DNA of 42,839 nt from a virus. Taxonomy: Duplodnaviria > Heunggongvirae > Uroviricota > Caudoviricetes. Made by a program: the position numbers and the translations under genes. Shown piece after piece: positions 1,772-42,839 of the stretch. Each line of letters opens with the position of its first letter. Position 1 is the first letter of the stretch. The stretch spans positions 1-42,839 of IMG/VR virus record IMGVR_UViG_2565956731_000005, one strand, 5' to 3'. The notes beneath the pieces are model-generated. The model searched no databases. It saw nothing but the letters and a program-made list of their open reading frames with translations, and was not told the DNA's origin.

Positions 1772-2397
1772 ATAGCCAGCACCTTACTGGCAGTGACGTA
1801 CCGCGCGCGCCGGTCGTCGATGCCGTTCCGGCCACCATTGATAATCAGAGTTACACGTGCAATATCACCGGTATACTTCATGCATCCTTTGCTGGCAAAG
1901 AACCACGCCGCGCTACGAGCCGCGTATTCGTCCTGCGCCAGCAGTTCAGGATTCTCCAGCAAGTCCACTTTCAAGCCGTTTCCGCAGTCACGATAGTTAT
2001 TCAAACCGGTAATCTGGATAAGTCCGCGACCTCGGTAATTCCAGCCATCGCCGGGGGCATTGTTCCCCATGCGTTTGCTGTACACCAGATTGGCAATAGC
2101 TCTCTGGCGCTCAGGTGGCAATGGTGGTTCGCCTGCGCGTCGCCCCAATGCGTTGGCCTGTCCCTGAGTGAGACGCCCAGCCCGAACAAAGTTAGCCAGT
2201 CCGCTGACGCTGTAGTTGAAATTCTCCTGCAACCGGGTGAAGCCTCCAGACTCATGCCCGACCTGAGCAATAAACATAGCCTGATCTTCTGGTTTGCTGA
2301 TACCAAACTCTTTCATCGCAGACGTTATATGCGAGAACCAGCGTGCGGACAGTGACTCGCTGATACCAGCAGCTCGCTGGAATTGTTTAATCTCCAT
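1768..2397 (-). CDS. Endolysin, glycoside hydrolase family 19 (chitinase-like lysozyme)
   Basis: Motifs [24 protein letters not shown] and NNYRDCG typical of GH19 phage endolysins of epsilon15/SPN1S-like phages (from memory); sits between the holin genes and Rz. Confidence 0.9.
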
Positions 2398-2698
2398 GTT
2401 TAGACCTCGATACTTTGAAAATCTGAACGACGTTACCGCGCGTTTTAATAACCGCAGCTAGCATGACAGCGTTGATAATGACCTCGGATAAATCCACAGC
2501 CATTGGCGTGCGTAACCAGATTGCATAGACGACACGAACAGGAATACTTGCCGCAGCGACAATCAGGAAATAAGCAAGCCACCCTCCCCATCTCCTGTGT
2601 TGAGAACCGTTACGCTGGAAAGTGACAACGCGAATTGCTATACCAGTACAAATAACTGCATTGGTGATAAGCAAAAAAAGCTCATGAGTTACCATCAT
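2387..2698 (-). CDS. Small membrane protein of the lysis cassette (holin/antiholin-like)
   Basis: 103 aa with 2-3 hydrophobic helices and a charged C-terminus; overlaps both the holin and the endolysin genes. Confidence 0.5.
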
Positions 2699-3098
2699 CT
2701 TTTCTCCCCGGAATTAACTCGCGTGGATTGTCGGAACGGTGGTAGAGCCAGATACCAATTCGCACTGCGACAATTGCTGACACGAATGCGCCAGCAGAGA
2801 AAACAATCCCTTTTTCAAAAGAGTCCTGCGTGATGGTAGGGATCAGGCTGGCTATGCCGATAAGAATTGATGCTGCTGGTTTGTAAAAGAGAAGACCGCA
2901 AAGAAAGCTGAGCATCGACAGGAGCACCCGGCGGCGGATCGGATATTCGACAGCAGAGGTAACAAAAATCACCGCGCCAGCCAAAGCACCGAGCGCCACT
3001 TCTGGCGGAACGCCTACGATAACAGCAGCAAAAGAGCTCATGCTAAGCCATTGATTTAGATGGTCAGTGGTTAGATGAGCTGACATAATGAACACCAT
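2682..3098 (-). CDS. Holin
   Basis: 138 aa with multiple transmembrane segments and a charged C-terminal tail, immediately upstream of the endolysin. Possible dual start MVFIM (GTG at 3098, ATG at 3086). Confidence 0.6.
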   Translation of the reverse strand: MVFIMSAHLTTDHLNQWLSMSSFAAVIVGVPPEVALGALAGAVIFVTSAVEYPIRRRVLLSMLSFLCGLLFYKPAASILIGIASLIPTITQDSFEKGIVFSAGAFVSAIVAVRIGIWLYHRSDNPRELIPGRKDDGNS

Positions 3099-6421: not shown

Positions 6422-6439
6422 AGGCCGCAAGAGCGGCCT
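6422..6439. terminator. Hairpin between convergent genes (bidirectional terminator candidate)
   Basis: AGGCCGC-AAGA-GCGGCCT stem-loop in the 22-bp gap between convergent genes 6158..6415 and 6438..7166; T-rich on the minus side. Confidence 0.5.
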
Positions 6440-7166
6440 ATCGTTTCGCTTTGTGCTCATCCCAGCACGTTTTGCACCATGCCATTAATCCGTCCGCATT
6501 TTGATTATTAGGGTAAAAGCTGGTTCGTTTTCTGCGGACATTACAAATTGGGCACCACTTCATATGGCGTGTATTCTTTGGGCCATCGAGACACCTTGCA
6601 CACCACTTAGTCAATCCATCTGGATTTTTTGACGATTTCCTGAATTTTTCATATGGTAGGTTTATTCTGCATCGCAAGCACTGCTTGCTACCACTTGAAA
6701 CTCTGTTAGCTGATTCTTCTTTTGGCGGCGATACAGAAGGTATTCTTGCTGGCTCTGATACTGCCTGAGGTGCTTTTTTAGATGACTGAGACGATATGTC
6801 ATCACCAGGGAATCTTCCATGATATGCCGGACGCGTTGACACTCCAGGTGGAAGCTCAGCTGTAAACGGCTTTGGCTGAATCAGTTGCCTCTCTTTTGCT
6901 AACTCCTGCTGTTTATAATATGTCTGGATTACCGCACTATCATAAGCAGGAGGTGCGGAAATATTAGGCGCATTACCTCCAGTTTTTTGAAACTGAGTAG
7001 AGGTGTGTTCTATCACCTGTGTACGATTAATCGTTATCTCCCCATCTTCGGTCTTTATCGTTTTGTTATGATTAACGACCGTACGATCAGAGATCTTAGT
7101 CTTGTTCTGGTTGATAACGTAAATAATCACCGCAACCACACCAACAACTATCCAGAAAACTTCCAT
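6438..7166 (-). CDS. Membrane-anchored protein with tandem C-terminal zinc-ribbon repeats, function unknown
   Basis: N-terminal transmembrane helix (FWIVVGVVAVIIYVI), Pro/Ser-rich linker, then CLRC…DGLTKWCARC…WCPIC…DGLMAWCKTC (two xDGLxxWCxxC repeats plus extra CxxC). RBS GAGGAAAA upstream; operator 20 bp upstream. Confidence 0.6.
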   Translation of the reverse strand: MEVFWIVVGVVAVIIYVINQNKTKISDRTVVNHNKTIKTEDGEITINRTQVIEHTSTQFQKTGGNAPNISAPPAYDSAVIQTYYKQQELAKERQLIQPKPFTAELPPGVSTRPAYHGRFPGDDISSQSSKKAPQAVSEPARIPSVSPPKEESANRVSSGSKQCLRCRINLPYEKFRKSSKNPDGLTKWCARCLDGPKNTRHMKWCPICNVRRKRTSFYPNNQNADGLMAWCKTCWDEHKAKR

Positions 7167-7295: not shown

Positions 7296-7385
7296 TTTAC
7301 ATCGCACTCCTCTTGTGCCATAGTAATCGGGTACTGGCAAAATCCAGTGCCGGGATTGGCGTCCCGAGTTACTAAGTGGCGCATA

Positions 7386-7407
7386 CCACGCCAGACGTGG
7401 TTTTTTT
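7386..7407 (+). terminator. Rho-independent terminator in the ant leader
   Basis: CCACG-CCAGA-CGTGG hairpin followed by TTTTTTT, about 155 bp upstream of the ant start codon. Confidence 0.65.
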
Positions 7408-7563
7408 ATGCGTTAAGCACAGCTATATCCGAATTATGGTGGGCTGGGCAGGGGTCCGAAAGGACGCCGGTACCACTTAGGCCGGTACGCCAACCTTGTC
7501 CAGTTCACCACCAGTAATTGGCGTTGCGGTGGTGATTAAAATCACTAAGTGGAGATAACCACC

Positions 7564-8274: not shown

Positions 8275-8343
8275 CGGCGGCGGCACAGGGATGTGCCTTT
8301 AAATAATTCTGTACGATTGCAGACTGTGGGTGAATAGCGTACT

Positions 8344-8360
8344 ATTACCTCAAGGGTAAA
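8344..8360. promoter_or_regulatory. Operator-like palindrome ATTACCTCAAGGGTAAA
   Basis: Motif copy about 60 bp upstream of the small ORF at 8420. Confidence 0.5.
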
Positions 8361-8419
8361 CGGATTGGTTTCATTTTTATTAATCCGTGTAATGAACTTA
8401 TGAGATATGAGGTAATGTC

Positions 8420-8599
8420 ATGCGAAACGAAAAATTGCAGATGCGTAGAGCGCAAGCTGCCGCAAGACGTTCTTTCAATGGAAGCGTAGAGTACGTAAAA
8501 GTTACTATGACAAAAGATCACGCAAGTCGCGTATCCCGCGCTTTCTTTGATTCTCGTAACAATAAGGAAAATTATGAGTTCGTCTGCGTCGCAGAATGA
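8420..8599 (+). CDS. Small basic protein (59 aa), possible ribbon-helix-helix antitoxin/regulator
   Basis: Below the ORF-track size cutoff. RBS GAGG 8 nt upstream; overlaps the start of the downstream gene by 26 bp (operon-coupled). VKVTMTKDHASRVSRAFF is consistent with a beta-strand plus helix DNA-binding fold. Confidence 0.35.
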   Translation: MRNEKLQMRRAQAAARRSFNGSVEYVKVTMTKDHASRVSRAFFDSRNNKENYEFVCVAE

Positions 8600-9119
8600 T
8601 AAAAATCAAATTGTCAGATATAAGGGTCGAGTATTGCATACGCAAAATTTCTCGGCCCTTTGTGCATCTGATCTTGAGCTGAAGAAAGTATCTGATGCCT
8701 TTACCCAGTATTGGAAAACGGGATACCATCCATCTCTTGGTAAAGATGCTGCATTTGCTCGTCCGACAGAAATGCTTAAACTAAATGTCAGGCATACTCA
8801 TGTCGATAACCAAGACTATATTCCAGAAGATAGTGATAAAAAACACACTGGTAAAAAATCATCTTGGGATGCATGGAAAAATATAGCGTCTGTACAAGTA
8901 AAATGCATACCAACAAGTGATTGCTTTTTAGTTTATTCGGTAAATCACAATCGTGATGCGCTGGTTATGTTTTTTGTTGACGCAGATGCCCACAACATAA
9001 CTGAGCAAGAAGAGTTTAAAGAGGCAGCAATCACTATCAGTTATCAATTCTTTGAGAAAACAAAAACAGAACCAATGCCTTTAGAAGAAGATCTTTTTTC
9101 TGATAAATGGAAGGAATAA
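8574..9119 (+). CDS. YafO-like protein (putative toxin / mRNA interferase family), product uncertain
   Basis: RBS AAGGAAA upstream of the ATG at 8574. Central region (GKDAAF…NVRHTHV…TSDCFLVYS…ALVMFFVDADAH) resembles YafO-family toxins as recalled; AT-rich relative to neighbours. Confidence 0.45.
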   Translation: MSSSASQNDKNQIVRYKGRVLHTQNFSALCASDLELKKVSDAFTQYWKTGYHPSLGKDAAFARPTEMLKLNVRHTHVDNQDYIPEDSDKKHTGKKSSWDAWKNIASVQVKCIPTSDCFLVYSVNHNRDALVMFFVDADAHNITEQEEFKEAAITISYQFFEKTKTEPMPLEEDLFSDKWKE

Positions 9120-9140
9120 GCCCGCGTTGCGGGCTTTTTT
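9119..9140 (+). terminator. Rho-independent terminator
   Basis: AGCCCGC-GTT-GCGGGCT followed by TTTTTT, immediately after the stop of 8574..9119. Confidence 0.75.
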
Positions 9141-9205
9141 GTGTCTGCGGATTCCCGCCCGGGTGGCGGTGGCATTCGTTAAAAACAAGGCTGCGAAAGC
9201 GGCCT

Positions 9206-9224: not shown

Positions 9225-9365
9225 TTATGACAAGCCTATGTACCCTGCTACACCAGATAATATCAAAATAACTGCAACAGCAAATTCGCCATCGTCAATG
9301 ATACATTTGCGGTTCATAACGCCAAGTGCAACAAGCGCAAACACAACAAGAATAAAAGCAATCAT
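9225..9365 (-). CDS. Small hydrophobic protein (46 aa), two predicted membrane helices
   Basis: Below the ORF-track cutoff. ATG with RBS AAGGATGAG directly after the stop of the 824-aa virion gene; MIAFILVVFALVALGV…VAVILILSGVAGYIGLS. Confidence 0.3.
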   Translation of the reverse strand: MIAFILVVFALVALGVMNRKCIIDDGEFAVAVILILSGVAGYIGLS

Positions 9366-36804: not shown

Positions 36805-36869
36805 TTCACCTATAAGGTAACAAAAATCAAGGATAGTTACCCATGAGGTGCATTTACCTGTTGGGTAAT
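36805..36869. promoter_or_regulatory. Immunity-region operator cluster
   Basis: Motif copies TTCACCTATAAGGTAAC (36805..36821), a weak GTTACCCATGAGGTGCA (36836..36852) and TTTACCTGTTGGGTAAT (36853..36869) in the 154-bp divergent region between the Cro-like and repressor genes, reminiscent of a three-site OR arrangement. Confidence 0.55.
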
Positions 36870-37564: not shown

Positions 37565-37643
37565 ATTACCTAATGGGTAATTTTTTTAACTCATATCTAT
37601 TGACATCAAACCAAATACGCATAATTATTACCTCAACGGTAAC
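37565..37643 (+). promoter_or_regulatory. Rightward early promoter (TTGACA at 37600..37605) flanked by two operators
   Basis: ATTACCTAATGGGTAAT (37565..37581, perfect) upstream of the -35 hexamer and ATTACCTCAACGGTAAC (37627..37643) over the -10/+1 region; drives the recombination operon. Confidence 0.55.
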
Positions 37644-41588: not shown

Positions 41589-42839
41589 TTATTCCCCCGC
41601 CATCCACTTCTCAAACTTCGACGGGGAGAACGGAATCAGATCCGTATGCTCCCCGTCAATCCATGAATCAATCATATCGGCCCACTGCTGCAACATGTAG
41701 GCGCGCTGTCTGGCGTATTCCGCTTTGTTATATACGGCGCGCACACCTTTCTGCTCATGTGCCAGAGCCTTTTCAATCCAGTCTGAAGGATAACCAGCCT
41801 CATGCAACAACGTACTGGCTGTACGGCGCATATCATGTACAGTGAAGTCCTGAATATGCTCACCATCTTCATTTATTATTTTCACCGTTCTGTCGATCAG
41901 AGAGTTCAGCGCGGCATTAGATAATGGCTTCCGGAAATTGTAACGACCAGGAACCAGATATTCACTTCCACCAGCGCACATCTGCAACCCGACCAATATA
42001 TCCTGTGCCTGTTTAGGCAGGTAAATAACGTGCGCCCGGCTTCCCTTCATGCGGTCTGGAGGAATTGTCCATGTCCATTTTTTAAAATCTATTTCATCCC
42101 ACGTTGCATTGGTGAATTCGCCCTTACGAACCATAGTGATAAGCACCAGTTTTAAAGCCATTTTCATAGTGCCCATAGCACCAATGGCATCCAGCGTGCG
42201 GAAGAACAGGCCAATTTCTTCTGGTGTCAGTGTTCGCTCTCGTGGTTTAAATATGGCGATAGACGAAGGTTTAATGTCAGCCGCAGGATTAAACAAACCA
42301 TGACCACGGTCATTGGCGTGACGGTATACGCTACTGATGATCTCCCTGGCCTGCACTGCTGTTGCCCGGCCACCGCGTTCGACAATCCGGTCACACAAAT
42401 CACGAACCATCGATGTGGTAATTTCAGCCATCATTTTATTGCCAAGAACCGGAAGTATGTCACGGTCGATCACCGCCTGTTTCATTGCGCGGGTACTGTC
42501 AGCCAGGATGACGTGTTTCATATAACTGTCGGTATGTACCGCAAACGTCTCGGCACCACGAATCTTTTTGATACCGTCACGTTTAGCCGCAGCCGGTGAC
42601 TGGCCTGCTTTAAGCAGCTTCTTTGCAGCAATCAGTTCTTCTCGCGCTTCTGCCAGGCTGATACCGTCACGCCCATACTGCCCGATTACCAGTGTTTCGC
42701 GGCGACCGTTGATACGGTAGTCATAGCGAAACGAGACCGTGCCTGACGTAAGCACAGCTACATACAGCCCGTCACGATCGGAGACCTTGTACAGTTTGTC
42801 CTGCGGCTTGAGGTTTTTTAATTTTGTATCGGTAAGCAC
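41589..42839 (-). CDS. int: Tyrosine integrase (P4-like), N-terminus at the window edge
   Basis: N-terminal arm-binding-like region (LTDTKLKNLKP…); catalytic region with HDMRRT and a C-terminal tyrosine; the start may lie just beyond the window. Confidence 0.9.
   Translation of the reverse strand: MLTDTKLKNLKPQDKLYKVSDRDGLYVAVLTSGTVSFRYDYRINGRRETLVIGQYGRDGISLAEAREELIAAKKLLKAGQSPAAAKRDGIKKIRGAETFAVHTDSYMKHVILADSTRAMKQAVIDRDILPVLGNKMMAEITTSMVRDLCDRIVERGGRATAVQAREIISSVYRHANDRGHGLFNPAADIKPSSIAIFKPRERTLTPEEIGLFFRTLDAIGAMGTMKMALKLVLITMVRKGEFTNATWDEIDFKKWTWTIPPDRMKGSRAHVIYLPKQAQDILVGLQMCAGGSEYLVPGRYNFRKPLSNAALNSLIDRTVKIINEDGEHIQDFTVHDMRRTASTLLHEAGYPSDWIEKALAHEQKGVRAVYNKAEYARQRAYMLQQWADMIDSWIDGEHTDLIPFSPSKFEKWMAGE

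Follow-up and report, generated by a model that had tools for sequence, protein, structure and literature searches.

A long-form YafO-like toxin gene with a small basic partner in a phiV10-like phage, and a phage-wide palindrome at their promoter

Structure and origin of the module

The virus record IMGVR_UViG_2565956731_000005 (IMG/VR) is analysed here over its whole stretch of 42,839 nucleotides (nt), which is called the window in the following and to which all coordinates refer. It represents a temperate podophage or prophage of Escherichia coli, of the phiV10 type (Uetakevirus): over its first 20 kb, about 71% of the sequence is shared with phiV10 (identity about 95.5%), and an integrase is encoded at 41589-42839. 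Between the antirepressor gene (ant) and the block of virion genes lies a two-gene module consisting of a small open reading frame (ORF) and a larger one with similarity to YafO toxins, which may together form a toxin-antitoxin-like pair. The following features were assigned, with lengths in amino acids (aa) and isoelectric points (pI) where applicable.

8282-8300, + strand: terminator-like hairpin after ant, GGCAC-AGGGAT-GTGCC followed by TTT, recognized in the sequence
8317-8345, + strand: sigma-70-like promoter, -35 TTGCAG at 8317-8322, 17-nt spacer, -10 TACTAT at 8340-8345
8345-8359, no strand assigned: palindrome TTACCTCAAGGGTAA, TTACC-N5-GGTAA, reaching from the last base of the -10 element over the predicted transcription start
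8409-8413, + strand: Shine-Dalgarno sequence GAGGT of the small ORF, 6 nt 5' of its ATG
8420-8599, + strand: small ORF, ATG start, 59 aa, pI 10.0; putative cognate partner (antitoxin); phrog_6685
8564-8568, + strand: Shine-Dalgarno sequence AAGGA of the toxin gene, within the small ORF, 5 nt 5' of the toxin ATG
8574-9119, + strand: large ORF, ATG start, 181 aa, pI 6.0; putative endoribonuclease toxin of the long-form YafO family with a RelE/HigB-type fold; phrog_1651
9118-9146, + strand: rho-independent terminator AAGCCCGC-GTT-GCGGGCTT followed by TTTTTGTGT, between convergent genes, found by the terminator scan

The two frames overlap by 26 nt (8574-8599), and each has its own Shine-Dalgarno sequence, in agreement with the initial annotation of this DNA, which had described a 59-aa and a 181-aa ORF with this overlap and a good ribosome-binding site. 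The block TATGAGGTGATGTCATG around GAGGT is kept across the phiV10-like related loci. As the Shine-Dalgarno sequence of the toxin gene is located inside the small ORF, translation of both genes is predicted to be coupled. A TTG start at 8547 (190 aa) was considered for the large ORF, and ATG 8574 was preferred on account of its Shine-Dalgarno sequence and the conserved N-terminus MSSSASQ.

The terminator has a stem of eight pairs (9118-9136) followed by TTTTTTGTGT and was graded strong; phiV10 has an annotated terminator at the equivalent site. The hairpin after ant was missed by the terminator scan because its T-run is interrupted. In related loci it reads GGCGC...GCGCC, a compensatory change from A:T to G:C, and it would shield the module from transcription arriving from upstream.

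The GC content of the module is 39.1% (toxin ORF 37.4%), compared to 51.4% for ant and 50.5% for the structural (virion-gene) block, so that the module is AT-rich as previously stated (39% vs 50% GC). The corresponding slot in phiV10, between the Bro-N antirepressor gene and the convergent terminator, holds only a 29-aa ORF, and hence the pair is best regarded as inserted cargo. Neither gene of the pair is found in phiV10 (tblastn, no match at E <= 1). Among 5,426 complete E. coli genomes the module is carried by 61, while 353 have a match to all or part of the 921-nt query, mostly to its flanks. Of 50,697 phage records, TL-2011b alone has the pair, with a paralogue of 31% identity in EC.W1-9, and no related locus was found in the GTDB representative genomes. 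The absence from phiV10, the low GC content and the 61 carrier genomes are all consistent with the horizontal acquisition suggested in the initial annotation.

The YafO-like protein and its small partner

YafO of E. coli K-12 is a ribosome-associated mRNA endonuclease which cleaves 11-13 nt 3' of the start codon; this mechanism is established for K-12 YafO only (PMC7781912). Pfam places YafO among the BECR-fold toxins, with the gene order antitoxin then toxin (PMC11980606). The sole Pfam match of the 181-aa protein, at residues 46-148, is to this family (PF13957, YafO_toxin) and is marginal, with 25.9 bits against a cutoff of 25 (E 1.1e-5); the same family is matched by 29 of 49 long-form relatives. 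In PHROGs the protein belongs to a family listed as of unknown function. A full-library profile search yielded 70 representative clusters, most of them 150-200 aa "long forms", with proteins of 131-135 aa at the weak end, and 14 of 15 of these short sequences are strong PF13957 members. In hhalign, the 49 long forms align with the 15 short forms at 99.9% probability (E 1.9e-34, 142 columns), and with K-12 YafO alone at 94.1% (E 1.3e-7). The resemblance to YafO toxins proposed earlier, together with the profile search suggested for it, has therefore stood: the protein scores above the Pfam gathering threshold, if by 0.9 bit, and the comparison of the families by hhalign agrees.

Residues G56, P64, H74/H76, S115, Y121 and H140 of the window protein occupy invariant or near-invariant columns of the long-form alignments. 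Of these, G56, P64, H74/H76, S115 and Y121 align with G40, P48, H58/H60, S83 and Y89 of the short forms, and H140 aligns with the AH motif. The protein is not a compact single domain of about 130 aa; it is extended at the N-terminus, carries an insertion at 77-113 and ends in a conserved tail of 18 aa. The insertion (about 35 residues) carries conserved W98/W101 in the long forms, the conserved tail is acidic (PMPLEEDLFSDKW), and the pI of 6.0 differs from that of short YafOs (8.6-9.3). A fold search with the AlphaFold2 (AF2) model of the toxin returns RelE/HigB toxins, the model having a RelE-type alpha/beta fold; Foldseek against BFVD returned nothing significant. Taken together, alignments and model support membership of the large protein in the YafO family and the RelE/BECR superfamily, as a distinct long-form subfamily. 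By analogy with K-12 YafO, it may cut RNA in the same manner.

The small ORF has a clear coding signature. The pooled ratio of non-synonymous to synonymous changes (pN/pS) in its non-overlapping codons is 0.42 in frame, while the two other frames give 1.05 and 0.91. It is intact in 42 of 42 viral loci with a toxin at least 57% identical to that of the window, and also in two loci with a toxin identity of 44-49% (L044, L049). Judged from its conservation, the small ORF is a real gene, beyond chance. Its family comprises 34 clusters, all from Enterobacterales, is listed in PHROGs with unknown function and shows no Pfam domain; the Prokaryotic Genome Annotation Pipeline (PGAP) usually leaves the ORF uncalled. 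The N-terminal part is a strongly basic helix (RRAQAAARR; pI 11.3 for residues 1-44), and the best-conserved part is the C-terminal half, VKVTMTKEHA.RVSRAFYD...NYEFVCVAE. The AF2 model, with a predicted local distance difference test score (pLDDT) of 71, consists of a helix (4-20), an extended stretch (21-31), a second helix (32-44) and a coil (45-59).

The description of the small ORF as ribbon-helix-helix-like (RHH) in the initial annotation was not borne out by the search of RHH and antitoxin profiles recommended there. No RHH family was matched at E<=0.1 by any of 33 members, and this identity was rejected. The nearest antitoxin-type match was ParD_like, in 2 of 33 members and at E>=0.11. 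An identity as YafN or Phd/YefM was likewise rejected, as the hhalign probability against K-12 YafN is 0.06% and Pfam gives no match. A profile search of the PDB with the small-ORF family found nothing.

The association of the two genes is strict. The small ORF is always found with the toxin, and the two are linked in all of the 42 viral loci mentioned above as well as in L044 and L049. In Pectobacterium the two genes carry neighbouring locus tags, and in Kosakonia they lie on one contig. In L044 (1630-2594) a 71-aa ORF and a 55-aa ORF precede a long-form YafO of 186 aa; the 71-aa ORF is the second one upstream and repeats the C-terminal half of the small protein (hhalign E 4.8e-6). As both small ORFs share the C-terminal motif, this locus has a tandem duplication of the partner gene. 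In another locus (L042, 3001-3535) the toxin is frameshifted and the small ORF is intact, while in an NCBI entry of 86 aa (P0040) the small ORF is frameshifted after residue 32 and runs into the toxin frame, which is also broken or truncated.

Two further groups of loci contain long-form YafO proteins with other upstream ORFs. In L008 and L039 a second, divergent long-form YafO is preceded by an ORF of 151-152 aa with a similar 30-residue end, M-[ST]-x-E-x4-[VI]-S-x2-[MF]...AE-stop. By hhalign, the resemblance of these 151-aa ORFs to the small ORF is not significant, and in an iterated search with a hidden Markov model they are the two best sub-threshold matches among 858 ORF segments (E 0.25, 0.44), so that a relationship of the C-terminal motif to the small ORF is no more than suggestive. 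In a siphophage clade (L046-L048, contigs, 2251-3037) the long-form YafO (45-48% identity) is accompanied by an unrelated basic upstream ORF of 63 aa, for which no homology to the small ORF was found in L046. The overlap of this ORF with the toxin gene measures 8 nt, and the pair, equipped with a promoter-like site and a terminator of its own, is flanked by tail genes (DUF6246, tape-measure region). Toxin-antitoxin systems show such exchange of partners.

From these alignments and gene arrangements, the most likely role of the small protein is that of the toxin's cognate neutralizer, and neutralization would most likely proceed via its conserved C-terminal half.

Promoter and phage-wide palindrome

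A scan with consensus promoters returned no promoter on the + strand for the module, the site in the window scoring 7/12, which is under the threshold of the scan. An alignment of nine diverged loci displays conserved TTGnnn and TAnnAT elements, separated by 17-18 nt of free sequence. The palindrome at the start site is conserved as well: in every phiV10-like locus with the pair, its half-sites are invariant and the N5 spacer is variable.

This palindrome is not confined to the module. TTACC-N5-GGTAA occurs in the window in 11 perfect copies (6066, 7187, 7280, 8345, 25444, 30526, 34461, 34523, 36854, 37566, 37628) and three copies with one mismatch (30508, 36469, 36806), compared to an expectation of 0.69. 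The copies cluster in the immunity region around the gene of a 194-aa regulator with two helix-turn-helix (HTH) motifs, and at promoters of accessory genes. The copies at 36806 and 36854 lie where a Cro-like 76-aa gene and the gene of the 194-aa regulator diverge, and those at 37566 and 37628 lie past the terminator of the regulator, at a perfect TTGACA promoter. In phiV10, though it lacks the pair, eight copies are found at equivalent places. In PHROGs, the 194-aa protein matches families of regulators and repressors, and phiV10 p40 has the identical sequence (100%). Overexpression of the homologous repressor of Uetakevirus vB_EcoP_ZX5 blocks lytic growth (PMC9782041). Keyword literature searching on these phages retrieved no defined operator.

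The palindrome is probably an operator used by the prophage repressor and Cro alike, this being the most economical reading of its distribution. A private operator of the antitoxin was considered and set aside, as the palindrome is phage-wide and also present in phiV10 without the pair. Of the operator-bearing promoter and terminator ascribed to the pair in the initial annotation, the conserved promoter, the palindrome and the terminator were recovered, whereas the palindrome is not the pair's own. An operator placed over the start site predicts a pair that is silent in the lysogen and becomes active upon infection or induction; hence, expression of the pair in the lysogen is doubtful. Silence in the lysogen would weaken the roles in superinfection defence and prophage maintenance which had initially been proposed, as both require lysogen expression.

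An mRNA hairpin hiding the ribosome-binding site (ATTACCTCA at 8344-8352 with TGAGGTAAT at 8408-8416, and an inner stem 8357-66/8382-91) was also considered and set aside (fold z-score -1.6). Its 5' arm is located in the -10/start region, so that it would be largely untranscribed from the module promoter. Between its arms relatives have indels of 20-40 nt, and L031 and L035 break a pair.

Interpretation and comparison with known systems

Based on this dataset, we hypothesize, with somewhat more confidence than doubt, that the module is a type II toxin-antitoxin-like moron, composed of a long-form YafO RNase and a neutralizing 59-aa partner, with a promoter wired to the immunity circuit of the phage. 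As a self-contained unit (promoter, two genes, terminator), it would have entered the genome between the antirepressor gene and the block of virion genes. The 181-aa protein, judged by homology, would be a ribosome-associated mRNA endonuclease shutting down translation. The basic 59-aa protein would be translated first, with translational coupling through the overlap of its frame with the toxin start, and would neutralize the toxin through its conserved C-terminal half. Transcription would proceed from the sigma-70-type promoter, its start site lying under a copy of the palindrome that also fills the immunity region. The prophage repressor would thus hold the pair off, to be switched on at infection or induction with the other accessory genes bearing the same site. 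Since the promoter has a candidate site for the phage's own repressor, the module would be of an ordinary kind but unusual in its partner and its wiring.

Several results weigh against this interpretation. The charge pattern is reversed in comparison to classic pairs (toxin pI 6.0, partner pI 10.0). No NCBIfam model matches the 181-aa or the 59-aa protein above noise, PADLOC gives no match for the pair or the neighbouring genes, and pairwise BLASTP of the 181-aa protein against K-12 YafO yields nothing significant, its Pfam score being marginal. The AF2 model of the toxin is of moderate quality (pLDDT 62), being poor at residues 54-62 and 75-116. No conserved repeat other than the palindrome, and with it no private autoregulatory operator, was found at the module promoter, and the assignment of repressor binding to 8345-8359 comes solely from the distribution of the palindrome.

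A possible, though clearly less probable, alternative is that the pair serves as an effector of the lytic phase. The YafO-like RNase would be switched on at infection or induction and act against mRNA of the host or of a competitor (host shut-off, anti-defence or exclusion of a co-infecting phage), while the small protein would act as a timer or inhibitor limiting harm to the phage's own translation. Silence in the lysogen, as predicted from the immunity-type operator over the promoter start, fits this explanation, and so does the presence of the palindrome at other accessory promoters, including one ahead of the antirepressor gene, a gene that has to be silent in a lysogen. The location of the homologous siphophage pair within a tail-gene cluster and the lack of a matching PADLOC defence model point in the same direction. 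On the other hand, a single operator copy may repress only weakly, and an own promoter with an own terminator is the classic layout of cargo expressed in the lysogen. Furthermore, as only 61 of the 353 part-matching complete E. coli genomes carry the pair, it is dispensable for lytic growth.

Still more tentatively, the loci may be viewed as an undescribed, phage-associated "long-form YafO" system, in which a portable, neutralizing C-terminal peptide is combined with an immunity-gated, repressor-gated weapon of the lytic phase, instead of lysogen defence or addiction. According to this proposal, the peptide would be a unit of about 30 residues, M-[ST]-x-[ED]-x4-[VI]-S-x2-[FM]...AE-stop, placed behind differing N-terminal parts: a bare basic helix in the window, a duplicated unit in L044, and a 120-aa domain in the paralogous pair.

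We consider it unlikely that the small ORF is no antitoxin at all, but a nucleic-acid-binding regulator or a coupling leader, with the enlarged acidic YafO-like protein being non-toxic or repurposed. Such a role would agree with the lack of any detectable antitoxin family, with the basic, arginine-rich helix 4-20 (RRAQAAARR), with the atypical acidic pI, insertion and added tail of the toxin, and with the small ORF being mostly uncalled by PGAP. However, purifying selection at the protein level acts on the small ORF along its full non-overlapping length, its C-terminal half is found again in the second upstream ORF of L044, a similar 30-residue motif (sub-threshold) ends the 151-aa ORFs before the second YafO paralogue, and the large protein keeps all conserved residues of the YafO family. 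A chance frame next to a borderline false-positive YafO match, to which the Pfam score 0.9 bit over the cutoff, the non-significant BLASTP against K-12 YafO and the frequent skipping of the small ORF by PGAP might point, is highly improbable and already refuted by the hhalign probability of 99.9%, the RelE/HigB fold matches, the coding signature of the small ORF and the conserved linkage.

Returning to the toxin-antitoxin-like moron, the toxin is already named in RefSeq, and the partner family is undescribed. If the small protein neutralizes the toxin, it would represent a new and apparently minimal antitoxin family in the RelE/YafO world, and a function would be provided for phrog_1651, for phrog_6685 and thereby for a gene that PGAP usually leaves uncalled. 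If control by the repressor applies, a toxin-antitoxin pair would follow the lysis-lysogeny switch instead of its own autoregulation, which bears on what phage-borne toxin-antitoxin pairs are for, the lytic programme or the lysogen with its defence and maintenance. As matters stand, the module is a fairly ordinary piece of prophage cargo.

Some neighbouring genes deserve mention. On the - strand, a conserved 46-aa ORF (9225-9365, phrog_7892) closes the virion-gene block and converges on the module terminator; it is a homologue of phiV10 p21, for which the phiV10 annotation gives an integral membrane protein and predicts two transmembrane helices. A 242-aa ORF (6438-7166, - strand; phrog_6762, labelled as function unknown) has a hydrophobic N-terminal stretch and C-terminal Cys-rich repeats with weak matches to Stc1, endonuclease VII and Lar-like profiles, and its start is preceded, at a distance of 21 nt, by a copy of the palindrome. 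The slot of this ORF is occupied in L008 and L039 by the second long-form YafO paralogue with its 151-aa upstream partner, and hence it is a cargo hotspot. Upstream of the antirepressor gene (7318-7515, + strand), Rfam identifies the isrK Hfq-binding RNA (7331-7407, 63.5 bits), the C4 antisense RNA (7432-7515, 66 bits) and an a1/b1 target element (7318-7370, 43.4 bits, slightly under the gathering score). With this set, ant of a phiV10-like phage is under immI antisense control of the P1/P7 type.

Among the closest known counterparts are gp45/gp44 of Escherichia phage TL-2011b and the E. coli prophage copies in RefSeq, with DNA 99% identical to the pair of the window and no difference in sequence that sets them apart. 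TL-2011b gp44 is annotated as "type II toxin-antitoxin system YafO family toxin". The annotation of these copies covers the toxin alone, the small ORF being "hypothetical" or uncalled, and keyword literature searching retrieved no study of the pair. Regarding its surroundings, the module resembles the immI regions of P22 and P1, as it likewise adjoins an antirepressor gene preceded by isrK and C4 antisense RNA elements, in a variable accessory region. However, the known immI circuits (P22, P1) do not include a YafO pair, which is an added moron here.

RelE, HigB, YoeB and YafQ are ribosome-dependent mRNA interferases of the BECR fold. Their sequence identity to the toxin is 4-16%, and they have no counterpart to the insertion and tail of the 181-aa protein. 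The YafN-YafO pair of K-12 (dinB-yafN-yafO-yafP operon, PF13957) shares with the module the toxin motifs FGKD..RP, RHxHV, TSD..LVY and AH, the RelE-type fold, and the order of antitoxin followed by toxin with overlapping or abutting genes. On the other hand, K-12 YafO has 132 aa and a pI of about 9, whereas the protein described here has 181 aa and a pI of 6.0, the added parts being an extension at the N-terminus, about 35 inserted residues and an acidic tail. The K-12 genes are chromosomal, while the module is phage-borne and its partner is not YafN or Phd/YefM. K-12 dinB-yafNO is under control of LexA (PMC7781912) and the module is probably under control of the phage repressor, so that both would be wired to a repressor of stress or induction.
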